Assembly (NCBI GenBank): GCA_043805995.1
Contig: JAZDHJ010000064.1
Span: forward strand, 1 to 38,735
Reading direction: 5' to 3'
DNA length: 38,735 nt
Origin: Candidatus Uhrbacteria bacterium
GTDB taxonomy: Bacteria; Patescibacteriota; Patescibacteriia; UBA9934; GWF2-40-263
Part shown: positions 3,185-36,263 of the stretch, piece after piece
Layout: the number at the start of each line of letters is the position of its first letter
How positions within the stretch are numbered: the stretch's first letter is position 1
The notes under the pieces: model-generated
Told to the model about the DNA's origin: nothing
Seen by the model: the letters and a program-made list of their open reading frames with translations, nothing else
Database searches by the model: none
Translations under genes and position numbers: made by a program

Positions 3185-6100
3185 TTAAACCTTCACATTC
3201 TGCCCACCAACCAAACCTCTGACCTCGGACAAAAATTCCTGGGTTGGATTGACTGCATAATCGGTTTCAATAATTCGTTTGGCACCACCGGAATCGATGA
3301 TGAAACGGACTTTTTTTTGACCGGGTGATGAGGTAAATAATTCACGCAGTTGGCTGATGAGGTCTGATGAGGGTTTGCCGACCAAGGTGACTTCCAAGGC
3401 CTGGGTTGAAGGGGCGGAAGGGGACGAAGGGGTTGAAGGGGATTGGATTGGTTGGGTTGGTTGGATTAGTTGGCCGAATTGCATACCTGGACGGGTTGTG
3501 ACTTGTTTGGCTTGGACCGCCGCTTGTTGAGAATAATTTTCAGTGTCTGGTACCCACAAATTATCTTTTAACATGGCCGCGATGTCTGGGGCTCGTTTAA
3601 GATCGGCAATAATAAAACTGTTGGCTAGTAGCTTGGCTTCTTCGCCTTCACGTCGAGAGACTTTGCCCGAGACGAGAACTATTTTGTCTTCGGCTAAAAA
3701 TTTTCCGAATTGGGTGTAGACGGTTGGAAAAACAATCACCTCGGCCTTACCATTTTTATCATCAAGACCGACAAAGGCCATGTTGTCGCCTTTTTTTGTC
3801 ACGATGGTTTTTAAAGAAGTAATCAAGCCACCGCATTTGATAAAAGAATTCTCGGCCTGACCCTGTAATTGATTCAAAGGTACCAAATACTGACCAACAA
3901 ATGAGCAGATATCATCATAAGGATGGGCGCTAATGTACAAACCAAGCAATTCTTTTTCCCAAGCCAAGAGTTCAATTTTCTCGGCCGGCGACGTTGGTCT
4001 GAGTTTTAGTTTTTCTGTGGCTAAAGCCGGTGACAAATCAAATAACGAACTTTGGTTTTGGGCCTGCTTTTCTTTTGACTCTTTGTTAAAATGCAAAATC
4101 TGCTCCATGTTTTCGAGCAAACTTTTGCGCTCACCGAAACAATCAAGCGCACCAACCTTAGTCAAAGCCTCAATAGCTTTTTTATTAAAAGCTCGATGAT
4201 GAACTCGCGAGGCAAAATCCGCCAGGTCTTTAAATAAACCATTGGCTTCACGCTCGGCCACAATCGCATCAACCGCTTCTTGGCCGAGATTTTTAATAAC
4301 CACCAAACCGAAACGAATGGTGTTGTCGTTAATATAAGTAAATGTAGAAAGTGACTCGTTGATATCTGGCGGCAAAACCGCAATGCCCATGCGTTGACAT
4401 TCTTTAACCGCATCAGAAATTGTCTCCAAGTCGGCCGATTCAGCGGTCATGAGCGCCGACATGTACTCGGCTGGATAGTTGGCTTTTAGATAAGCGGTTT
4501 GATAAGCGACCATGCCATAACTCGAAGCATGGGCCTTGTTAAAACCATAAGCCGCAAAAGGTTCAATGAGTTTCCAAAGTTCGTCAGAATTTCTTTTACT
4601 CAAACCGTGTTTTACAAAACCCTCAAGCAACTTTTCTTTTTGCTTGGCCATCTCTTCAGGAATTTTCTTACCCATGGCTTTTCGCAGTTTGTCAGCTTCG
4701 AGCCAAGTGTAACCGGCGAGTTTGATGGAAATAAGCATGACATCGTCTTGATAAACGATGACGCCGTAAGACTGATCCAGAATTTCTTCCAGACGCGGAT
4801 CCATGTATTTGATGAGTGAACTATCGTATTTTCGAGCGATGTATTCGGGAATGGATTCAATTGGACCTGGACGATAAAGCGCCACCATAACCATGATATC
4901 TTGGATACGTGATGGTTTCAGTTCCATTAAATACTTGGTCATGCCGTCACCATTCAACTGAAAAGTTCCCATGGTAAAACCTCTAGCCAAAAGGTCGAAA
5001 GTTTTTGCGTCATCAACTGGGATTTTGTCGGTTTTAATATCGACACCTTTAGTTTTGCGAATAATCCGCACCGCATCACCAAGAATCGATAAGTTGCGAA
5101 TACCAAGAAAGTCCATTTTCAAAAGACCGGCCGCTTCCACGGCGTGCATTTCATATTGCGTGATGATCTTCCCTTCCTTGGTTTCAATTTGCAGTGGAGT
5201 GAAATCGGTGAGTGGGGTCGGCGAAAAAACTACTCCAGCGGCGTGAACAGAAACGTGGCGAGCGCAACCCTCAATTTGCTGAGCCAGGTTTATGAGGCGA
5301 CGAACATTAGGTTCAGTGTCATATCTCTTTTTCAAATCCGCATCCTCCTCGAGCGCCCGTTTTAAAGTCATGGGAAAACCCTGGCTGCCCATGGGTACCA
5401 TTTTGGAAATTCCATCAACAAAAGAATATTCGTGACCAAGAGCTCGACCAACATCGCGAATGCTGCCGCGAGCCAGCATGGTGCCGAAAGTACAAATCTG
5501 GGCAACCTTGTCCTTACCGTATTTTTCCGTAACATACGCCAACATCTCGTCACGACGGTTATCCGCAAAGTCACCGTCCACATCAGGTGCCGATGGACGT
5601 TCTGGATTTAAAAAACGTTCGAAAGGTAATTTGTATTTAATTGGATCGACGGTGGAAATACCAATCGAAAAACTGACGAGCGAACCAGCCGCCGAGCCAC
5701 GAGTCGTGGTCATAATACCGTGAGCTCGCGCCCATTCGATATAGTCGGAAACGATTAAAAAGTAAGGCGCAAAACCTTTCATTTCAATAACCGAAAGTTC
5801 ATAATCGATGCGCTTAACCATTTCTTCAGTTACCGCCTCAACCTTATTTGGCAACTCGGCAAAGGCACGCTTTCGTAAATACTCCAAGTGAGTCAAACCG
5901 TCCGGCACCTCGAAATGCGGAAAATTCCATTTACCCAAATCAAAATGCACGTCGCAACGATCAGCAATCTTTCGCGTGTTCTCAATCGCCTCAGGTAAAT
6001 CCTTAAAGCGATTTATCATGTACTCAGCATCGACCAGCGAAGCATCGTAATCGTAAGTTTGCACCCGATCGAATTCTTCAAGAGTTCGACCGTCCTTAAC

Positions 6101-6790
6101 ACACTGCAAAATTTTCCAAGCCTCAGTATCCTGCGGTTTCAAATAAAAAACATTTTTGGTGGCCACGATTGGCACTCCCATTTCTTTGCCAAGTTCGGCC
6201 AACTTGGCATTATTAGCTTCCTGCTCGGGAATTTCTGGACGGTCAACAAGTTCCAAGAAAAAATTATTCTGACCAAAAATCTCGACGTACTCAACAATCA
6301 ATCTCTTGGCCTCGTCAATATTGTCATTAGTTAAAGCTTGATCAATATCACCGAAGCGTCCACCAGAAAGGGCGATCAAACCGTGTTCTTTGCCCAAACA
6401 AAATTCTTTCAAAAGTTCCTTATCCAGGCGCGGCTTATAATAAAAACCTTCGATAAAACTTTGCGAAGAAAGTCGAACCAAACTGTTGTAACCAACCATA
6501 TTCTCGGCCAGCAAAACCAAACGACTCGGCTTAGCATCCATTTTGCCGCGTTTTTGAAAACGACCGTTAACCGCCAAATAAACATCCGAACCAACAATCA
6601 ATTTCATCTCTTCGTCCTTCATTTTCTGATAAAAATCGATGACACCATACATGACCCCGTTGTCAGTTAAAGCAAAAGTGTCCATATTCCGCTCTTTCAT
6701 AGCCTTAATGAGCGCCTTGGTTTTAGGCAAGGCTTCGAGGAGCGAATAGTGGCTGTGGACGTGCAAGTGAACGAAGGGTGATTTTTCCAT
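3185..6790 (-). CDS. dnaE: DNA polymerase III alpha subunit
   Basis: 1201 aa; HLHVHSHYSLL PHP start, RGSAAGSLV, FERFLNPER..PDVD.D, GLLKMDFLG, FAAYGFNKAH, C-terminal OB fold. Confidence 0.98.
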   Translation of the reverse strand: MEKSPFVHLHVHSHYSLLEALPKTKALIKAMKERNMDTFALTDNGVMYGVIDFYQKMKDEEMKLIVGSDVYLAVNGRFQKRGKMDAKPSRLVLLAENMVGYNSLVRLSSQSFIEGFYYKPRLDKELLKEFCLGKEHGLIALSGGRFGDIDQALTNDNIDEAKRLIVEYVEIFGQNNFFLELVDRPEIPEQEANNAKLAELGKEMGVPIVATKNVFYLKPQDTEAWKILQCVKDGRTLEEFDRVQTYDYDASLVDAEYMINRFKDLPEAIENTRKIADRCDVHFDLGKWNFPHFEVPDGLTHLEYLRKRAFAELPNKVEAVTEEMVKRIDYELSVIEMKGFAPYFLIVSDYIEWARAHGIMTTTRGSAAGSLVSFSIGISTVDPIKYKLPFERFLNPERPSAPDVDGDFADNRRDEMLAYVTEKYGKDKVAQICTFGTMLARGSIRDVGRALGHEYSFVDGISKMVPMGSQGFPMTLKRALEEDADLKKRYDTEPNVRRLINLAQQIEGCARHVSVHAAGVVFSPTPLTDFTPLQIETKEGKIITQYEMHAVEAAGLLKMDFLGIRNLSILGDAVRIIRKTKGVDIKTDKIPVDDAKTFDLLARGFTMGTFQLNGDGMTKYLMELKPSRIQDIMVMVALYRPGPIESIPEYIARKYDSSLIKYMDPRLEEILDQSYGVIVYQDDVMLISIKLAGYTWLEADKLRKAMGKKIPEEMAKQKEKLLEGFVKHGLSKRNSDELWKLIEPFAAYGFNKAHASSYGMVAYQTAYLKANYPAEYMSALMTAESADLETISDAVKECQRMGIAVLPPDINESLSTFTYINDNTIRFGLVVIKNLGQEAVDAIVAEREANGLFKDLADFASRVHHRAFNKKAIEALTKVGALDCFGERKSLLENMEQILHFNKESKEKQAQNQSSLFDLSPALATEKLKLRPTSPAEKIELLAWEKELLGLYISAHPYDDICSFVGQYLVPLNQLQGQAENSFIKCGGLITSLKTIVTKKGDNMAFVGLDDKNGKAEVIVFPTVYTQFGKFLAEDKIVLVSGKVSRREGEEAKLLANSFIIADLKRAPDIAAMLKDNLWVPDTENYSQQAAVQAKQVTTRPGMQFGQLIQPTQPIQSPSTPSSPSAPSTQALEVTLVGKPSSDLISQLRELFTSSPGQKKVRFIIDSGGAKRIIETDYAVNPTQEFLSEVRGLVGGQNVKV

Positions 6791-6806
6791 AACTTACGAC
6801 CAGCTT

Positions 6807-6835
6807 AACAAAAAGCCCCCGCCAACGGAAGGGGC
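6807..6835 (-). terminator. Terminator-like hairpin, near-identical copy of 7613-7642
   Basis: Minus strand gccccttccgttggcgggggc followed by tttttgtt; ends about 16 nt above the dnaE start. Confidence 0.6.
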
Positions 6836-6894
6836 CTTGACTTTTTGAAATACCTATGATAACTAAACCTTAGTTTGAATCCATAAACCAGCAA

Positions 6895-7506
6895 GTGACA
6901 GGAGAAGTCGTGAAAGGAACTAAACCAAATCCATATAAAATCCTCGTGCTCTCTGACACAGACTTCGACAAAAGTCTTACCTTTCACTTTCGGACAGAGC
7001 AGGATGCGAGGAATGCAAAAAATCCGAAACGTGTCATGTTCGAACCCATATTCGTCAGGAACCTTACGGAGGCAATTGAAATTATAAGGACCTGCTCCCC
7101 AATAGCCCTTCTGGCTCTTGAGGTTGACCAGAAGCTACTGCAAATTCTGGATCACTTATACAAAGGCACCATTATCATCTGCGCCGATACGACGACGCTC
7201 GTAGAAGTCCCTCGTGCCCTTTTAATAAACGCACAGTGCGTAGATTTTACACGACTGGTGCAACGGGTAATAAGCCACTGTCTTCTGAATCTAGCCAGAA
7301 CAGAAAATTCTGAAGCTTTGGAAACCCACGCAAGAACGACCTCGATGGCTCCGACTAATTTTGATAAATGGATAGCTTTCGACAACGGTCGAATCACCTA
7401 CTCGGATCCAAGTCTCGAAGCGCTTATAGCACGAGTCGGAGAAGAAGCAGCGATCGGTTTCTGCGACACAAACGGCCGGGTATATTTAACACCACCGACC
7501 GACTAG
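6895..7506 (+). CDS. Hypothetical protein: degenerate receiver-like N-domain plus DUF5678-like C-domain
   Basis: 203 aa, GTG start; KILVLSD and NLTEAIEIIRTCSPIALLAL resemble REC strands/helices without the phospho-Asp; FDKWIAFDNGRITYSDPSLEAL resembles the GKWVA..G.V.AS..L.E pattern of DUF5678. Domain calls by eye. Confidence 0.55.
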   Translation: MTGEVVKGTKPNPYKILVLSDTDFDKSLTFHFRTEQDARNAKNPKRVMFEPIFVRNLTEAIEIIRTCSPIALLALEVDQKLLQILDHLYKGTIIICADTTTLVEVPRALLINAQCVDFTRLVQRVISHCLLNLARTENSEALETHARTTSMAPTNFDKWIAFDNGRITYSDPSLEALIARVGEEAAIGFCDTNGRVYLTPPTD

Positions 7507-7645: not shown

Positions 7646-7667
7646 ATTTTTATTTTTTCTTACCAAT

Positions 7668-8000
7668 CTATGGCTGATAACCAGGCGCGACATAACCCGG
7701 AGCAACATAACCAGGCGCCACGTAACCTGGAGCGACGTAGCCAGGCGCGACATAACCAGGGGCTTGGTAACCCGGAGCGACATAACCCGGAGCTTGATAG
7801 CCAGGTGCGGAATAACCTTGAGTGGAATAACCGGCGGCATTATAACCAGGTTGGATCATTTTACCTTTTTTGTAAAACGAATCGGTTGGAATGGTGGCCA
7901 TGGCAAAAGCCGCGGCCACGGTTAAAACTCCGGCTACAACGAGCAGGGCGACAAAAGTTTTGGTTGAAGTTTTTGTCTTAACTTGCATTTCATTTGACAT
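7668..8000 (-). CDS. Small exported/membrane-anchored protein with 12 xxxGY pentapeptide repeats (9 xAPGY)
   Basis: 110 aa; Lys/Thr-rich leader plus hydrophobic helix, then (V/Q/S)APGY repeats encoded with varied synonymous codons; starts 2 nt after the upstream stop. Confidence 0.8.
   Translation of the reverse strand: MSNEMQVKTKTSTKTFVALLVVAGVLTVAAAFAMATIPTDSFYKKGKMIQPGYNAAGYSTQGYSAPGYQAPGYVAPGYQAPGYVAPGYVAPGYVAPGYVAPGYVAPGYQP
7677..7856 (-). repeat. 15-bp degenerate tandem repeat, 12 units, coding
   Basis: Period-15 units such as ataaccaggcgcgac / ataacccggagcaac / gtaacctggagcgac on the plus strand; variation mostly at third codon positions. Confidence 0.9.
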
Positions 8001-15620: not shown

Positions 15621-15833
15621 TCCCCCACCCCCACCGTCGCTCGAGGCGAGCTATGGTGGGCACAGCCAGCCTTCCTCCCCCGTATGTGGCATACGAGGGA
15701 GGGAGTATTACTGAAGATGGTTTTTTAATTTTAATTTATTTTTTTGGATAACGAGGCGAGATCCCTCTTTGACTCGGGATGACAGATTAAAAAGGATTCT
15801 CCCTCTCGGCGGGAGAGGGTTGGGGTGAGGGGA
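15621..15833. repeat. Composite cluster of palindromic (REP-like) elements from three families
   Basis: Family A copy 15621-15704 with nested family B (cccaccgtcgctcgaggcgagctatggtgggcac), family C 15749-15785, inverted family A 15797-15833 abutting the pheS stop. Confidence 0.8.
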
Positions 15834-16853
15834 TCAAAACTGCCTCAAAAACCTTTCATCTCCACCTTGCATCAACCGAGCATCGTCAATTGCATATTTC
15901 AACATGGCTAGGCGAGACAAACCGAAACCAAAAGCAAAACCTTGATATTTTTCCGGATCAACCCCGCCTTCTTTTAGAACTGTCGGATGGACCAAACCAG
16001 CACCGAGCACTTCCAGCCAACCGGTTTTTTTGCAAACTCGGCAACCTTGACCTTGGCAAAGAAAACAAGTCACTTCCCCGCGCATACCAGGCTCGACAAA
16101 CGGATAAAATTTTGGCCGAAGACGAGTTTTGGCTTCTGGTCCAAATAAATGTTTAGCCACTTCTTCGAGCACACCTTTCATGTGACCAAGATTAATCTCC
16201 TTATCAACCATTAAACCCTCAAGTTGATAAAAAGTGTGTTCGTGACGGGCATCGGTCGCCTCGTTACGGAAACAGCGACCTGGCACAATCACCCGAATCG
16301 GCGCGCCATATTTTTGCATGGCCCGAACTTGAACTGGCGAAGTTTGAGTGCGCATCACCTGATCTGGATAGTCTTTGATGTAAAACGAATCCTGCATGTC
16401 GCGGGCTGGATGAGTTGGCGGAATATTCAGCGCGGTAAAATTGTAAAAGTCACTTTCAAGTTCTGGTCCATCGAGAACCATAAAACCCATGGAAGCAAAC
16501 AGATCTTCAAGTTCCTCGGTGATTTGGGTTATCGGATGAAGATGACCACGACCTTCAGCCGGAAAAATTGGTTCGGTAACGTCGAGCCATTCGCCTTCAA
16601 AAACTTGAGAGACTCGACGAGCCGCTTCGGCCTTGGCAAAACCTGCTTCCATGCCTGACTTGATGACATTGGCAAACTTACCAATTTCCTTTCGTTCATC
16701 ATCAGCCAGCTCGGCCATTTCCTTCATAAGCAAAGCCAGGTGGCCCTTGCGCCCCAGAAATTTATTTTTGATTTCCTCCAAATCGACGCCGTCTTTAAGA
16801 TCAGCCAAGGTGGCCTCAAAAGTTTTTTTAAGTTCTTCAAATTTAGATTTCAT
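15834..16853 (-). CDS. pheS: Phenylalanine-tRNA ligase alpha subunit
   Basis: GHLHPI, NFTALNIP..HPARDMQD, RTQTSPVQ, FYQLEGL, YPFVEP, GFAFGFGL.RL. Confidence 0.98.
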   Translation of the reverse strand: MKSKFEELKKTFEATLADLKDGVDLEEIKNKFLGRKGHLALLMKEMAELADDERKEIGKFANVIKSGMEAGFAKAEAARRVSQVFEGEWLDVTEPIFPAEGRGHLHPITQITEELEDLFASMGFMVLDGPELESDFYNFTALNIPPTHPARDMQDSFYIKDYPDQVMRTQTSPVQVRAMQKYGAPIRVIVPGRCFRNEATDARHEHTFYQLEGLMVDKEINLGHMKGVLEEVAKHLFGPEAKTRLRPKFYPFVEPGMRGEVTCFLCQGQGCRVCKKTGWLEVLGAGLVHPTVLKEGGVDPEKYQGFAFGFGLSRLAMLKYAIDDARLMQGGDERFLRQF

Positions 16854-23825: not shown

Positions 23826-23964
23826 CCCCCACCCCAACCCTCCCCCGCATGAGGCATGCGAAGGAGGGAGATTCAGTTTTTTAATTAATTGTGTGCGAAG
23901 TAACCCAAAAAAAGTATTCTCCCTCTCCTGTACGCCGCGTACGGGGGGAGGGCTGGGGTGGGGG
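23826..23964. repeat. Inward-facing pair of family-A REP-like palindromes (REPIN-like)
   Basis: cccccaccccaaccctcccc-cgcatg/catgcg-aaggagggaga 23826-23871 and an inverted copy 23917-23964. Confidence 0.8.
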
Positions 23965-24024
23965 AAGTAACCCAACAAGCGATTATTCGCATATTCGTAT
24001 ATTCGCCAAAATTCGCACTTCATT

Positions 24025-30626: not shown

Positions 30627-32012
30627 ATGTTTGCCTGCACCAAATGCGACGCCCAATTCCCCAAATGGTCCGGTCGCTGTACCGAATGTCAAGGCTGGGG
30701 GACACTCAAAGAATCGGACGAATCCGAAATTATTTCTCATAAAAATTCAAAATCAAAACCAACCGGCAAAACCGGAGTTTTGTTATCGCAAGAAAAATCC
30801 TTAGCCCAAGCCCGCATCTCAAGTGGCGAAGCCGAAGTTGATCGAGTACTCGGTGGCGGGATTGTTCCCGGCTCGCTCATTTTACTTTCAGGCGAACCGG
30901 GGGTTGGTAAATCGACATTGGTGGCCCAGATTGCGACCTTGCTTCCCCCACCCCCGCCCTCCCCCGTCGCGGCGACAGGAGAGGGAGACTTAGGTGGGTT
31001 TGTGCTTTATATTTCTGGCGAGGAATCGGCTGGGCAACTTGCGACTCGTTTTGAACGACTGGGGAAAAAATTTGATCGAGTTAAATATTTGGAAGTGGAA
31101 CCGGTGGAAACCATCATTTCCAGCATTGAAAAAGAAAAACCGATTTTGGCGATTATCGATTCCATCCAAACCGTCAATTCTTTGGATCTCGATGGCGCGG
31201 CTGGTAATCCAAATGTTGTTCGCTACGTTACCAATCTCCTCCTCCAATGTGCCAAACAAACCAACATCCCAATCATGATCATCGGCCAGGTGACCAAAGA
31301 CGGCTCAGTCGCCGGTCCAAAAACTCTTGAGCATCTCGTCGACGCCGTTCTATCACTCGAAGGCGATCCGGTTCATGCTTTCAGAATTTTACGAGCCACA
31401 AAAAATCGTTTTGGTTCAACTGATGAGGTTGGGGTTTTTGAAATGGCTAAAAACGGACTCGTAGCTGTACCAAATCCTTCGGAAAGATTTTTGGCCGAGC
31501 GACAGAATTCACCGGGTTCAGTCATCACCGCCGCTCTTGAAGGCTCACGAGTTTTTTTAATCGAAGTCCAAGCCCTAGTCGAAAAAAGTTTCTACCCTTC
31601 CCCAGTTCGCCGCGCTTCGGGTTTTGACGTAAACCGATTACAAATGTTATCAGCCATACTCTCCTCACGCGCCGGATTAAATCTCGGCGATAAAGATATT
31701 TATGTGAATGTCATTGGTGGTATGGAACTAAAAGAACCGGCAGCCGATCTCGCGGTTTGCGCGGCTATTTTGTCGGCAGTAAAACCCCCACCCCTAACCC
31801 CTCCCCCAAAGGCAGGAGGGGAAAATACTGAACCAATGGTTTATTTTGGCGAGGTGGGATTGGGTGGCGAGGTTCGCTCGGTTCTCGGAGCTGAACGACG
31901 GTTGAATGAGGTGGCGCGGATCGGCTTGAAACGAGCAGCGGTGCCACAGAAAAATATTGGAGAGATTAAATCGCTGGAGGTGGTTGGGGTGAAGTCGGTG
32001 AGGGAGTTGTAG
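30627..32012 (+). CDS. radA: DNA repair protein RadA/Sms
   Basis: C4 zinc finger (CTKC..KWSGRCTEC), GEPGVGKST, IDSIQT, AGPKTLEHLVD, KNRFG, FGEVGLGGEVR. Confidence 0.97.
   Translation: MFACTKCDAQFPKWSGRCTECQGWGTLKESDESEIISHKNSKSKPTGKTGVLLSQEKSLAQARISSGEAEVDRVLGGGIVPGSLILLSGEPGVGKSTLVAQIATLLPPPPPSPVAATGEGDLGGFVLYISGEESAGQLATRFERLGKKFDRVKYLEVEPVETIISSIEKEKPILAIIDSIQTVNSLDLDGAAGNPNVVRYVTNLLLQCAKQTNIPIMIIGQVTKDGSVAGPKTLEHLVDAVLSLEGDPVHAFRILRATKNRFGSTDEVGVFEMAKNGLVAVPNPSERFLAERQNSPGSVITAALEGSRVFLIEVQALVEKSFYPSPVRRASGFDVNRLQMLSAILSSRAGLNLGDKDIYVNVIGGMELKEPAADLAVCAAILSAVKPPPLTPPPKAGGENTEPMVYFGEVGLGGEVRSVLGAERRLNEVARIGLKRAAVPQKNIGEIKSLEVVGVKSVREL
30943..30988 (+). repeat. Family-A palindrome inserted in frame in radA
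   Basis: cccccacccccgccctcccc-cgtcgcggcgaca-ggagagggaga, translated as PPPPPSPVAATGEG after the Walker A helix. Confidence 0.85.
31784..31823 (+). repeat. Family-A palindrome inserted in frame in radA
   Basis: cccccacccctaacccctccc-ccaaaggc-aggagggg, translated as PPPLTPPPKAGGE in the Lon-like domain. Confidence 0.8.
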
Positions 32013-32034
32013 TGTGCCTCTCTCGTCGGGTGGT

Positions 32035-32211
32035 TCCCCTCACCCTCCCCTTCGCTGGGCTTCGGCGGAGCAGGCCAACCCTCTCCCGCCGAGAGGGAGA
32101 ATAATTTTTATTTTGTTATAAAAAACAATCGACGGATTTTACGATTTTTTTCTTTTTTACAACAATCCAAGAATCCCCCCTCTCCATCAGGAGAGGGTTG
32201 AGGTGAGGGGA
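32035..32211. repeat. REPIN-like unit (inward family-A pair), left flank of the candidate ncRNA
   Basis: cccctcaccc..[nested insert]..ccaaccctctcccgccgagagggaga, spacer with aaaaacaatcgac, inverted copy ccctctccatcaggagagggttgaggtgagggga. Confidence 0.8.
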
Positions 32212-32221
32212 AAAACTTTAT

Positions 32222-32263
32222 AAAAAAAGAACACCCCGAGATATCATGCGACATCAAGGGGTG
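32222..32263 (-). terminator. Intrinsic terminator for the minus-strand noncoding transcript
   Basis: Minus strand cacccc-tt-gatgtc-gcat-gatatc-tc-ggggtg followed by ttcttttttt. Confidence 0.75.
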
Positions 32264-32409
32264 GGGAGAAAGAGGGAAAAGGCACCTCGGACAGGATTGT
32301 CCAAGGGCGCGTCTGATTTTTCCCACCGACCAGGCGCGGACAGACAAAGGAGGCTTCTGAAAAAATTCCTCACCTATGTCTTAAATTTATCTTCACCGCT
32401 TTGTCAAAG

Positions 32410-33275
32410 GCGGGATAGGACGGCTCGGCATGTCCCCTTAAAAGGTACGACAGCCGGCCCTTGAAATTTGGTCATTGATCAGCCATATGGCCGGCAGATG
32501 CGGTGTACGAAAACACCCGATCTTTGACCGAAACTCCCGTTTCGTCTGAGTCCTCTCCTCCGTACGTCCTGACGGGAGAGCTCAACCAATATCGCCCTAC
32601 TGCGTCTTCAGGAAGACACAGCCCTCTTTTTGACTACAACCTCGATTGACGATATTGATTCCGATTCACAGAACCAAAGATCGTAAAACCCTCGAGATTA
32701 CTCCCAAAACCCTTTGGATGCGACGCCTAAGGTTTTATTTTCCTACTAGGAACCTCATCATTAAGGCTGCTAATACGGGAGCGGCAGGTAACCAACCCAC
32801 CAACTTGTCCTAACCTCTACACTCCAGCGGTTCTGGAGTGTCGATTCTCTTTACCAAGCCTGTCATTCCCCCACGAACCGAGTAATGGGGACAGGCGACA
32901 TTCGACGTTATTTTTTTTAACTGCGTGTCCTGCAGAACATCGCTGACACGTATCGGAACTTACGTCCGATTATTTTCACCCCGTCGTGCCAGAAACGGAG
33001 TGCTTTTTTATCTGGCGTGTGAGACTGGGAACCCTGCAGCCTCGTCGCAGTCTTCAGAGGTGGCATCGAAACGCCGCCTCCGGGAGGGGTTCCTCTCCTA
33101 TTGTGCGAACGACGCGAGTCATCGTACCGGTCGAACGCAACTTTCGCCCTCGATCCTTCTTCGGATCGCAAGCAACCGTTCGTTCAGCGGACACCGACTT
33201 CTCACCATCGTCCAGTTCGTAAGGCCTAACGGCGCCGACCACTGAAGGTCGTTGTCGCCCAGGTCACTTTCGAAC
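32410..33275 (-). ncRNA. Candidate large structured noncoding RNA (about 870 nt core, up to about 1050 nt to the terminator), class unassigned
   Basis: GC-rich, no credible ORF, own promoter, continuous hairpins and long-range helices with G-U pairs on the minus strand, UUCG and GNRA loops, H-type pseudoknot at 32977-33016. Confidence 0.7.
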
Positions 33276-33280
33276 GATTC

Positions 33281-33309
33281 AGACTACCATGTTTTGACGA
33301 TTCTGTCAA
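33281..33309 (-). promoter_or_regulatory. Near-consensus sigma70 promoter driving the candidate ncRNA
   Basis: TTGACA (33309-33304)-17 nt-TAGTCT (33286-33281) with extended -10 TG; no protein gene downstream on this strand. Confidence 0.75.
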
Positions 33310-33366
33310 GAGGCGTTGGGTGGAAATTTGAAAAATGGCTTATTTTTTGGTGTTTTTTTGACTTTA

Positions 33367-33521
33367 TCCCCTCACCCCAACCCTCTCCCGACTGGGGTGG
33401 TATTTTAATTTTTGTTTGATCACAAAAAAACAATCGACTGGTTTATTTGATCGATTGTTTTTATTTTCTTAAAAACCCAATAATCCTCCCTCTCCGTCGG
33501 GAGAGGGTTGGGGTGAGGGGA
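33367..33521. repeat. REPIN-like unit with central terminator hairpin, right flank of the candidate ncRNA
   Basis: cccctcaccccaaccctctcccgac ... gtcgggagagggttggggtgagggg inverted pair; central aaaaacaatcga/tcgattgttttt stem 33426-33462 can terminate recG. Confidence 0.8.
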
Positions 33522-33522
33522 C

Positions 33523-35577
33523 TCACTCCAAATGCACCCGCTCAAACCCGACCAAAATATTTTCTTTAACCAACGGATGAACCGACAAATCTGGATCCTG
33601 CTCTAAAATTCGATGGGCCCAGTCACGGGCTTTTTTCATTAAATCTGTGTCGCCAAGGTTGGCAAATTTTAAATCTGGCAAACCGGATTGGGCGGCGCCG
33701 AAGGCATTCCCTGCCCCGCGGATTTTCAAGTCTTCTTCAGCCAAATAAAAACCATCTTGCGATTTCACCATTATTTGCAGACGACGTTGACTGACATAAT
33801 TTGTGTTCTCGGGATACAAAAAACAAAATGACGGAAAACTCGAACGGCCAACTCGACCTCGTAATTGATGCAGTTGAGCTAAACCGAAACGCTCGGCCCC
33901 AAAAATTAGCATCACGGTCGCGTTCGGTACATCGACACCGACTTCGATGACGGTTGTCGAAACCAAAACATCGAGTTCGCCGGCGACGAACGAGGACATA
34001 ATTTTTTCTTTCTCATCACCTTTCATTTGACCATGCAAAAGTCCAACCCGAAATTTTTTGAATTGGTTTTTGGACAATTTTTCTGCCGTCTCTTTGGCCG
34101 AAGCGACACCGAGTGCGTCTGACGGATCGATTAAAGGACAAACAGCAAAAACTTGGTGGCCAGCTTCAATTTCTTTTTGGATTTTTTCGTACATCTTTTT
34201 TTCTTGCGAATAGGTAACGAGCTCAGTCGCAATCGGCAAACGACCTGGTGGTCGCTCATTCAAAATCGATAATTCCAAATCGCCGTAAACTGCGAGAGCG
34301 AGCGAACGTGGAATCGGCGTCGCCGTCATCGACAAAAGATGCGGCGCCTTGTCCTGATTTTGTTTCATTAAAGCGTGACGCTGTTCAACCCCAAAACGAT
34401 GTTGTTCATCAATGATGACCAGAGAAACTTCTGGCATTCGCGCTTTATCTTCAAACAAAGCGTGCGTGCCAACCACACAAGAAATTTCTCCAGCTGTTAG
34501 GGCCTCGAGGAATTTCTTTTTACTCAAAGTTTCTCCATTCCAAATCGCTCGCGTGCGAGTCAACAGAGCTGGCCGAAAATCTGGTAACATTTTCTGCAAA
34601 GTTTGATACTGCTGTTCGGCGAGCAGTTCGGTCGGCGCAAGATAAACCACCCGACCACCGGCTTTGAGCGCGGCGAGTGCACCAATGACCGCGACGACGG
34701 TTTTTCCTGAACCGACATCGCCTTGAAGCAAACGATGCATCGGCTCGGGTTTAGCCAAATCTTTCACAATTTCCCAAGCCGCTTTTCGCTGACCATCAGT
34801 TAATTTGAACGGCAATTTTTCGACAAAATTTTTAATCTCCGACACCGGACACTCAAGCGACTCGGCACCAATGACTACCCGCTCACGTTTCAAATGGGCG
34901 AACATGAGCTGACGCAAAAACAACTCATCGAATTTCAGACGATGAACTGACCGATCAAAAATATCTGACGATGGTGGAAAATGAACGGTCGCGAGAGCCT
35001 GGTGCAGCGGTGGAAAAACTTCGGTCTCACGAATTTCTTTTGGCAGCCAATCAACAAACTCACCAGCCGCTCGAAGCGCTTCTTTAACCGCCGCTCGCAA
35101 ACGCCGACCAGTAAGCGAACCGGTTAAACCATAAATCGGCACAACTCGGCCGGTATTAACCTGGGCGCCCGGCGCTTCGCAAACCGGATTCATAAGAGTG
35201 GTACTGCCAAACTTACGATTGACGCGACCAGCCAAAGAAACCACCGAACCGATTTTTAAAGTCTTCTCCAAATAAGGTTGGTTGAACCAAAGCACTTTCA
35301 GCTCACCAGAATCATTACCAAAAACCGCCTCAGTCAAAGTTAAATGTCGATTACGACTCGGCCGACTTTTTATTGATCTGATCACCCCAACCAAAGTCAC
35401 CGCGTCATCATGCCGCAAAGCGGGAATCGGTTTAGAAACCGAAAAATCATCATACCGAAACGGCACATACCACAAAAGATCGCGGACGGTAAGAACGCCA
35501 AGCCGCGCCAGATCTTTGCCAGCAACCGCACCAATGCCGGGGAGATCTTCAACCGATGTGCCTAAGTGAGTGGACAT
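33523..35577 (-). CDS. recG: ATP-dependent DNA helicase RecG
   Basis: DLL.Y.P.RY.D wedge domain, RLLQGDVGSGKT, APTELLAEQ, DEQHRFGV, MTATPIPR, AERFGLAQLHQLRGRVGR, DGF.LAEEDL..RG.G. Start taken at 35577; the ATG at 35589 lies inside a repeat. Confidence 0.97.
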   Translation of the reverse strand: MSTHLGTSVEDLPGIGAVAGKDLARLGVLTVRDLLWYVPFRYDDFSVSKPIPALRHDDAVTLVGVIRSIKSRPSRNRHLTLTEAVFGNDSGELKVLWFNQPYLEKTLKIGSVVSLAGRVNRKFGSTTLMNPVCEAPGAQVNTGRVVPIYGLTGSLTGRRLRAAVKEALRAAGEFVDWLPKEIRETEVFPPLHQALATVHFPPSSDIFDRSVHRLKFDELFLRQLMFAHLKRERVVIGAESLECPVSEIKNFVEKLPFKLTDGQRKAAWEIVKDLAKPEPMHRLLQGDVGSGKTVVAVIGALAALKAGGRVVYLAPTELLAEQQYQTLQKMLPDFRPALLTRTRAIWNGETLSKKKFLEALTAGEISCVVGTHALFEDKARMPEVSLVIIDEQHRFGVEQRHALMKQNQDKAPHLLSMTATPIPRSLALAVYGDLELSILNERPPGRLPIATELVTYSQEKKMYEKIQKEIEAGHQVFAVCPLIDPSDALGVASAKETAEKLSKNQFKKFRVGLLHGQMKGDEKEKIMSSFVAGELDVLVSTTVIEVGVDVPNATVMLIFGAERFGLAQLHQLRGRVGRSSFPSFCFLYPENTNYVSQRRLQIMVKSQDGFYLAEEDLKIRGAGNAFGAAQSGLPDLKFANLGDTDLMKKARDWAHRILEQDPDLSVHPLVKENILVGFERVHLE

Positions 35578-35582
35578 ACCAA

Positions 35583-35783
35583 CTGTCATTCCGAGTCAAA
35601 GAGGAATCTCGCCTCGTTAATTTTAAAATTATTGAATTATTTAATTATTGCCGTGCCCATCATAGCCCGAGCGGCGGTGGGAATTTTGGAAATTTATTCT
35701 TTGGTATTAGAGCTAACTTTAAATCAAAGAAGATAAAAATTCCTTAATTAAATAATTCACTAATTCAATAATTCGGTAATTAA
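35583..35783. repeat. Repeat cluster upstream of recG: family C, family B and inverted 8-bp AATTATTG/AATTCAAT arrays
   Basis: 35583-35619 is an inverted copy of 15749-15785 (35 of 37); 35653-35681 matches family B at 15630-15663; 8-mer arrays at 35627-35650 and 35746-35783. Confidence 0.8.
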
Positions 35784-36173: not shown

Positions 36174-36263
36174 GGAGAGGTGTCTGAGTGGCTTAAGGAG
36201 ACAGTCTTGAAAACTGTTGTACCTGCAAGGGTACCGTGAGTTCGAATCTCACCCTCTCCGCCA
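36174..36263 (+). tRNA. tRNA-Ser (TGA)
   Basis: GGAGAGG/CCTCTCC stem plus GCCA, anticodon arm ACAGT-CTTGAAA-ACTGT, variable arm GTACC-TGCAAG-GGTAC, GTTCGAATC. Confidence 0.97.

Follow-up and report, generated by a model that had tools for sequence, protein, structure and literature searches.

A probable fast-evolving, structured noncoding RNA gene on an accessory island between radA and recG in a Candidatus Uhrbacteria genome

The convergent genes radA and recG of a small groundwater bacterium of Candidatus Uhrbacteria (assembly GCA_043805995.1, contig JAZDHJ010000064.1, positions 1 to 38,735; this whole stretch of 38,735 nucleotides is hereafter called the window) are separated by a spacer of 1.5 kb which probably carries a fast-evolving gene for a structured noncoding RNA (ncRNA) on an accessory island. 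With moderate confidence, we read the minus strand from 33279 to 32222 as a young, accessory, stand-alone gene for a densely folded and functional ncRNA of approximately 1,060 nucleotides (nt). The starting point was a sequence-only reading of the window, which had proposed a large RNA with its own promoter at this locus. The case for an RNA gene is built on the anatomy of the unit, its folding excess, the lack of a coding signature, its uniqueness in the genome and its status as an insertion; transcription, the start site, selection on the fold and a role as scaffold or decoy are what we infer.

The putative promoter (33281-33309, minus strand) consists of a -35 element, TTGACA, at 33309-33304 and a -10 element, TAGTCT, at 33286-33281, separated by a spacer of 17 nt. 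A direct reading of the sequence places the dinucleotide TG (33289-33288) one base 5' of the -10 element and agrees with the earlier description of TTGACA-17-TAGTCT pointing into the region on the minus strand. The transcript would begin at about 33279, a position given by its distance to the -10 element, and this predicted start lies within a conserved leader, G-N-ATCGTTCG-NNN-GTGA (33260-33280, minus strand). The first helix (33208-33276, minus strand) is formed by CGUUCG (33276-33271) with YGGACG or CGAAC and by GUGA with UYAC, and encloses a variable hairpin; the pairing of GUUCG (33275-33271) with CGAAC (33219-33215), already pointed out in the sequence-only reading, can form and is used by the minimum-energy folds. 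The RNA body (32264-33207, minus strand), as defined on the minimum-energy fold, is unique in the genome and has no Rfam, Pfam or PHROG match. At its 3' end, reading and folding of the sequence give an intrinsic terminator (32222-32263, minus strand), in which a hairpin CACCCC..GGGGUG (32263-32232) is followed by UUCUUUUUUU, the U-tract occupying 32231-32222. The terminator scan had missed this element; the outer loop of its hairpin exceeds the 3-8 bases that the scan allows. Given the terminator, the 3' limit of the unit lies at about 32222 rather than at 32410, where it had originally been drawn, and the unit is about 190 nt longer. The minus-strand orientation assigned to the RNA at the outset fits the promoter, the terminator and the better fold.

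Open reading frames (ORFs) in the region are short and overlap one another, the longest comprising 106 amino acids (aa) for the plus and 84 aa for the minus strand, much as the region had been described. Searches with 11 ORFs of 42-106 aa returned no Pfam or PHROG family up to an E-value of 0.1, a single 42-aa ORF giving a below-threshold Pfam row (E 0.19) in a search up to E 1, and the longest ORF of each strand had no homologue among the near-length proteins of 5.8 billion clustered sequences. An alternative genetic code was considered and rejected, since each frame contains at least two of the three kinds of stop codon and is therefore not opened by any single stop reassignment. The coding alternative, which the sequence-only reading had named as a check, was thus pursued in these ORF searches and in the close relative described below, and no coding signature appeared in either. 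The G+C content of the core is 0.50-0.57, compared to 0.429 for the genome. The same reading had further held that spacers elsewhere in this genome are short or AT-rich; the piece at the locus does have the highest G+C content (0.495) among the 40 longest listed ORF-poor stretches, but a crude map of the genome holds 89 stretches of at least 350 nt without a 100-aa open frame, eight of which are longer than the locus piece. Several such stretches of the source genome (G000), including C11:30798-32048, C33:8210-9449 and C18:3397-4460, extend for at least 1 kb without a 100-aa frame at a G+C content of 0.39-0.46.

The window was searched against Rfam 15, whose models include the group I and group II introns, RNase P RNA, transfer-messenger RNA (tmRNA), GOLLD, ROOL, OLE and HEARO, and no match in the core reached its gathering score; the expectation that the RNA would fall into no known family was therefore upheld. 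The sole match in the window at gathering score is a tRNA at 36174-36260. When the threshold was relaxed to E ≤ 10 over 32000-33600, the core gave only a row from a microRNA (miRNA) model, at 21 bits against a gathering score of 71. The locus was also rejected as a housekeeping RNase P RNA or tmRNA because both are encoded elsewhere in the genome with strong scores (C11:1692-2159, 131.5 bits and C8:8343-8753, 125 bits, respectively). A divergent member of one of the known large families (group I or II intron, RNase P RNA, tmRNA, GOLLD, ROOL, OLE or HEARO) would suit the size of the RNA, which falls in the range of those families, yet in the face of these Rfam results, and with RNase P RNA and tmRNA accounted for, we regard such membership as extremely unlikely. 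For an intron in particular there would be nothing to splice, as the locus interrupts no gene.

On the minus strand, the region 32410-33280 folds at -341.4 kcal/mol, compared to -294.7 ± 6.2 kcal/mol for 20 dinucleotide shuffles (z -7.5, with none of the 20 shuffles as good), so that the energy comparison suggested at the outset turned out in favour of a structured RNA; the plus strand of the same region gives z -4.2. Seven consecutive pieces of 150 nt (200 shuffles each) have z values of -2.7, -1.7, -2.2, -0.9, -1.7, -2.3 and -4.4 on the minus strand and of -2.3, -1.1, -2.1, +0.5, -0.7, -3.9 and -2.4 on the plus strand, the strongest minus-strand value (-4.4) belonging to the 3' piece at 32231-32380. 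The folding excess is thus spread over the whole unit and is somewhat stronger on the promoter strand. For the RNase P RNA and tmRNA of the same genome the corresponding values are z -4.5 and -5.0, and four controls of 870 nt from radA and recG, taken in sense and antisense, range from z +0.9 to -1.9 (these RNAs and coding controls were scored with a separately written shuffler, 12 shuffles each).

In the minimum-energy fold of the whole unit, 67% of the bases are paired in a structure with 23 hairpins, those of the first helix and the terminator included, and G-U pairs account for 43 of the 357 pairs. Among the helices that had been found by eye, CGAUCC/GGAUCG and the 9-bp helix ACACUCCAG/CUGGAGUGU exist, either as read or in the folds. 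The complementarity for two others is present as well: the 12-bp helix between 32672-32683 and 32518-32529, three of whose pairs have to be G-U on the minus strand, and that of UAGGAC (32807-32812) with GUCCUA (32416-32421). The minimum-energy fold leaves both unused.

Approximately 23 hairpins in a row, behind one promoter and ahead of one terminator, could also belong to a precursor that is cut into many small RNAs, either a guide-like array of the CRISPR or TIGR kind or a cluster of small RNAs. One report describes TIGR arrays as tandem units of ~36 nt that carry edge and loop repeats or form regular stem-loops, beside a Tas gene with a Nop domain, and places such arrays in Patescibacteria, some variants being tandem stem-loops without sequence repeats (PMC12045711). 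The core of the present locus holds neither tandem nor direct repeats, its hairpins are irregularly spaced (22 to 83 nt), no Nop-domain match was found in the source genome or in the relatives G004 and G008, and no associated protein gene adjoins the locus in the window. A TIGR- or CRISPR-like array was accordingly rejected, and a processed precursor of any kind is considered highly unlikely.

Searches of the genome with the core returned no other match at E < 1e-3, and its short genome matches number 39, against 129-180 for three coding control stretches. On both sides of the unit lie dispersed, palindromic, GC-rich repeats that resemble miniature transposons. The first (32075-32211) is situated between radA and the terminator and has 17 other genome matches at E < 1e-3, and the second (33356-33532) lies between the promoter and the end of recG, has arms of 82 nt which are 72% complementary and has 25 matches at the same threshold. 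A pile-up of REP/BIME-like repeats was considered as the source of the whole locus and rejected, because the core has no other copy in the genome at that threshold.

The RNA locus is an insertion at the radA/recG junction, flanked on the left by radA (30627-32012, plus strand) and on the right by the convergent recG (33523-35589, minus strand). The radA locus was collected from 29 relatives in the family, and 24 of these loci show a convergent recG downstream. Measured from one tblastn alignment to the other, the gap is about 100 nt or less in 17 of the 24 loci, being 8 nt in G003 of the same genus, and 259-1,022 nt in the remaining seven. The gap in G004 (L042) measures 2.26 kb and contains a gene for an AAA_14/DUF4143 ATPase as well as ~900 nt of G+C-rich sequence with few ORFs, oriented like the window RNA. 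In G063 (L040), it holds two small protein genes, the product of one of which reads as a helix-turn-helix protein resembling an antitoxin. Gaps of 259-751 nt were seen in other relatives, L023 and L030 being among the loci concerned. These comparisons mark the radA/recG junction as an insertion hotspot. Sensitive blastn searches for a phage or plasmid origin of the insert gave no match among 50,697 phage records and 72,556 plasmid records.

Within the genus set (G000 to G004), sequence and pattern searches found the RNA in two of the five genomes, G000 and G004, at the same place and in the same orientation. A BLAST search of 60 relatives with the body returned no match in any other genome. 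Between G000 and G004, nhmmer aligns the promoter and approximately the first 120 nt of the transcript (E 4e-13) and offers a doubtful match at the terminator (E 2.3). The first helix is common to both, with 10 stem pairs kept, most of them invariant, around an enclosed hairpin that differs. RNase P RNA and tmRNA of G000 align to those of G004 at 71-82% identity over most of their length, from which it follows that the body of the candidate changes much faster than these housekeeping RNAs. The G004 counterpart nevertheless folds at z -5.7.

A closer version of the locus was found on a contig assembled from a groundwater DNA run, directly downstream of radA. This contig covers 32213-33310 at ~85-90% identity and differs from the window RNA by 110 substitutions and 57 gap letters. 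The substitution analysis covers the 28 listed substitutions of the 110, which all fall between 32242 and 32560, and the 10 deletions listed for the RNA. The 28 substitutions are distributed 10/9/9 over the three codon phases and nine of the 10 deletions are not multiples of three, whereas seven of the eight listed substitutions in the recG flank of the same contig fall at third codon positions. When placed on the minus-strand fold, these 28 substitutions include two compensatory pairs (32453/32429 and 32444/32437, both C-G to U-A), eight one-sided changes that keep the pair, mostly via G-U, six that break it and 10 at unpaired positions.

The promoter and leader were followed further afield. 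The hexamers, the TG and their spacing are kept in G004 and also in a third genome, G008, as TTGACA-N14-TGn-TAGTCT, and the 17 specified bases of the leader are identical in G000, G004 and G008. Allowing up to two mismatches, the leader pattern TAGTCTGNATCGTTCGNNNGTGA was searched in 162 order genomes and 401 sampled class genomes; it was also searched in a 19-nt form over 73 family genomes, and as an exact match over the whole species-representative, metagenome and viral collections. The exact pattern occurred in only the G008 record among the genome contigs, once among the metagenome contigs (L055) and in none of the viral contigs. The L055 match lies inside an ORF of an AT-rich contig and was set aside as chance, as were matches with two mismatches in G017, G020, G093, G173 and G375, which lie inside long ORFs and have no promoter. 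A profile of promoter and leader scored 43-49 bits in G000, G004 and G008; the next best score, 31 bits, came from a G101 relative, which is a close relative of a training sequence, and everything else in 151 order genomes stayed at or below 22 bits and resembled ordinary promoters. Within G000, GTTCG immediately follows the -10 element in only three of 157 promoter-like sites.

The promoter of the window RNA belongs, on sequence comparison, to a wider type that also drives protein genes and often stands beside TrmB-like regulators. The "own" promoter of the sequence-only reading is therefore present and is kept in G004 and G008, but it is not exclusive to this RNA. In G008 the locus with this promoter follows a gene for a TrmB-family regulator, and the orthologous regulator gene in G000 (C4:4562-5290), G003 and G023 has a promoter of the same build ~520 nt downstream. 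The leader behind the C4 promoter aligns to the G008 leader region at E 1e-5. By virtue of the orthologous regulator and this alignment, the G008 locus corresponds to C4 and not to the locus in the window; G008 was consequently rejected as a third member of the RNA family, its leader matching the C4 locus better than the window body. The C4 locus itself (4562-6900, L100) and its equivalents in G003 (L099) and G023 (L101) have a conserved promoter and leader, GTTCAATGCTTGTGAACAA..GTGAGCGAAGAGCC, after the TrmB gene. In G023, a promoter on contig C54 beside a TrmB-family gene shares 21 identical bases around the -35 element with the window and precedes an ORF of 45 codons. Matches to the TrmB-family protein number 3-11 per genome (nine in G000 and 11 in G004), which makes the adjacency less striking.

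The G101 match to the leader, with two mismatches, precedes a gene for a 184-aa protein that has four database matches at 62-100% identity, the query itself included. It was rejected as a homologue of the RNA; no frame of the window RNA is related to this protein. As an observation in its own right, the G101 locus (C34, L052, 859-1413, minus strand; P0001-P0004) encodes a conserved protein without a Pfam family, marked by the motifs LLRSKKMPEFAF, SFRY..RRSF.YSVVCACC and ELYGRRT, behind a predicted promoter and leader like those of the window, and a TrmB-family gene is transcribed divergently from it.

The transcript of the window locus could be a long structured messenger for one or more very small proteins, for example the hydrophobic product of a 22-codon ORF at 32803-32735 (minus strand, TTG start, GAGG upstream), with a ribosome-binding site buried in a helix after the manner of a type I toxin; this ORF is relevant to the present question only. 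The upstream GAGG and the hydrophobic product speak for such a messenger, as does the C4 locus, where the sequence behind a promoter of this type is free of long ORFs for ~670 nt and continues with a hydrophobic ORF of 22 codons and a basic one of 54 codons, both conserved in G003. The RNA of G004 has no comparable hydrophobic ORF among those listed, the surroundings of the ORF are unaligned between G000 and G004, and chance alone should produce an open frame of 22 codons within 1 kb. The RNA is, moreover, far longer than the known messages of type I toxins. The listed deletions in the groundwater contig are no test of the ORF, because all of them lie 3' of it. On balance a peptide messenger seems to us quite unlikely.

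Several observations weigh against a functional ncRNA gene and are best considered together. The -10 element agrees with TATAAT at only three of six positions, which is why the promoter was not listed by the consensus scan, and support for the promoter comes from its conservation and not from that scan. Since this promoter type also drives protein genes, its conservation alone is no proof of a functional body. The RNA was not found in G001-G003, in 68 other family genomes, in 162 order genomes or in 401 sampled class genomes, and the broadly conserved "ornate" RNA that had been envisaged gives way to one present in two of five genomes of the genus. The body is unalignable between G000 and G004, and with only about the first 120 nt aligned there is no conserved core as in ribozymes or the known ornate RNAs. 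The contrast between the strands in folding is modest, and the plus strand likewise beats chance. When the groundwater variants are placed on the plus-strand fold, the same two compensatory pairs appear, with five changes that keep a pair, six that break one and 13 at unpaired positions, and the eight kept and six broken by one-sided changes on the minus strand are near the chance expectation for transitions. The evidence from covariation, two compensatory pairs among 28 of the 110 substitutions, is therefore thin, and suggestive rather than proof.

These points could be read together as the mark of a non-functional remnant, that is, foreign G+C-rich DNA or a decayed gene which settled behind a portable promoter at a hotspot for insertions; the foldability would then be a by-product, and the body would be drifting. 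The locus is indeed an insertion, at a junction that measures about 100 nt or less in most relatives and 8 nt in G003 and that carries unrelated cargo in others; its distribution is patchy, its body is unalignable within the genus and promoters of this type drive unrelated cargo at other places. In a genome of 43% G+C, however, neutral DNA would be expected to lose both its G+C content and its folding excess, whereas the versions in G000 and G004 keep 50-57% G+C and z values of -7.5 and -5.7. No frame retains a trace of a protein, a terminator is present where the unit ends, and the first helix has been preserved. The substitutions in the RNA amount to ~10% (110 in 1,098 nt) while those listed in recG fall almost entirely at third positions, a rough comparison that suggests constraint on the RNA. 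We consider a remnant unlikely and prefer a functional ncRNA gene.

What selection seems to preserve in such a gene is its promoter, its first helix, its high G+C content and its dense folding, while the sequence of the body turns over fast. We propose that the RNA would be transcribed from a near-consensus promoter of the sigma-70 type and would end at the intrinsic terminator. Instead of relying on a conserved catalytic core, it may act by the sheer mass of its fold, as a stable and abundant scaffold or decoy for one or more proteins or nucleases, and it could be switched on through the promoter type that adjoins TrmB-family regulators in relatives. A sponge of the CsrB kind was rejected as the mode of action, as no k-mer is both clearly enriched and common to the RNAs of the window, G004 and G008.

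The G008 locus deserves separate mention. From a promoter of the same type, a stretch of approximately 4 kb without credible genes (C3, L053, 2300-6311, minus strand) extends to a gene for a Ro60-like protein with TROVE and Ro60 vWA domains. The stretch contains diverged internal repeats, including two copies of ~365 nt that are 68% identical. Both copies can adopt a common fold of 87 pairs with pairing in every cell; 15 of these pairs differ on both sides, compared to 0-1 for six slid controls, a count that is favoured by the use of that very alignment to derive the fold. Four copies of a 100-nt module are found in the stretch by a model built for it, and Rfam gave no match to the stretch even at E ≤ 1. 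We suggest that this stretch may be a structured RNA array linked to Ro60. The module was sought in the window and G004 RNAs and was absent from both, the best row (model R1) having an E-value of 9.6. Among the five genomes G000, G001, G003, G004 and G008, a TROVE match is present only in G008; a Ro60/Y RNA link for the window locus was rejected, there being no TROVE gene in G000 or G004.

A broader and more tentative proposal, which we regard as possible but doubtful, is that an undescribed kind of dense, fast-evolving RNA of 1-4 kb exists in this family of Patescibacteria, with a promoter-leader module that travels with TrmB regulators. The RNAs of the window and G004 would be one lineage and the G008 array another, and both might be regulated scaffolds or decoys for proteins, with a possible part in RNA quality control and with selection acting on the helices and leaving the sequence free. 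Full-text literature searches, with supplements and subscription journals outside their reach, returned no description of such an RNA in Patescibacteria. To our knowledge, very few bacterial ncRNAs are near 1 kb in size, and each of those that have been characterised revealed unexpected biology. If the reading as a functional ncRNA gene is true, dense structure is here maintained while sequence turns over within a genus, unlike the conserved cores of the ornate RNAs, and comparative searches are built to miss RNAs of this kind. In organisms that cannot yet be cultivated on their own, the promoter-leader module linked to TrmB could in addition define a regulon. Should the RNA gene not be real, the locus is a useful warning that a strong folding z-score and a good promoter can arise on young accessory DNA.

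Some further features of the window concern its repeats. The palindromic family that flanks the unit is also represented at 15779-15837 and 23826-23970, has arms CCCCTCACCCCAACCCTCTCCC/GGGAGAGGGTTGGGGTGAGGGG around an AT-rich centre, occurs in dozens of copies across many contigs, and is a below-threshold mimic of plant miRNA precursors in Rfam. The RadA proteins of G000 and G004 carry two in-frame insertions, located in G000 at 30939-30995 and 31785-31830 (PPPPPSPVAATGEGDLGG and KPPPLTPPPKAGGEN), whose DNA is of the same palindromic, G+C-rich kind as the dispersed repeats. Both are absent in G003 and G023, while G034 is without the second and has a short insert at the first site; they recall palindromic elements that insert in frame into genes. 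An inverted pair of 37 nt (35583-35619/15749-15785, 95% complementary), just upstream of the recG start and beside a copy of the palindromic repeat, probably represents a further dispersed element. At 7660-7850, eight overlapping copies of a repeat with a period of 15 nt (..ACATAACCAGGCGCG..) are probably a repetitive coding stretch.

The locus can be set beside several known systems. With pile-ups of REP/BIME-like repeats or miniature transposons it shares an ORF-free, hairpin-rich stretch between convergent genes, with true dispersed palindromes on both sides, but it differs from them in a core that is unique, that has fewer short matches than the controls and that has a promoter and terminator of its own. 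With type I toxin messages and structured leaders it shares a highly folded RNA with a short hydrophobic ORF and a paired ribosome-binding site; unlike the toxin messages, it is several times longer, its ORF lacks conservation in G004, and a gene for an antisense RNA was not identified. Y RNAs are encoded beside Ro60 genes in bacteria. The likeness to that system lies in G008, where a promoter of the same type precedes the ~4 kb of structured, modular RNA that ends before the Ro60-like gene; the differences are that G000 and G004 have no TROVE match, that the G008 modules are absent from the window RNA, and that the G008 locus is the counterpart of C4. There remain the large "ornate" bacterial RNAs GOLLD, ROOL and OLE, of unknown or partly known function (PMC12286853, PMC5737381). 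These RNAs have conserved sequence and structure, covariation across many species and Rfam models, whereas the window RNA matches no Rfam model, its body is not conserved within its genus, only three versions of it are known and no phage genes adjoin it. Although it thus falls outside their families, it is GOLLD, ROOL and OLE that the window RNA would work most like: a candidate stand-alone ncRNA of several hundred nucleotides, densely folded, with no need for a protein to be translated from it, and here situated on accessory DNA.

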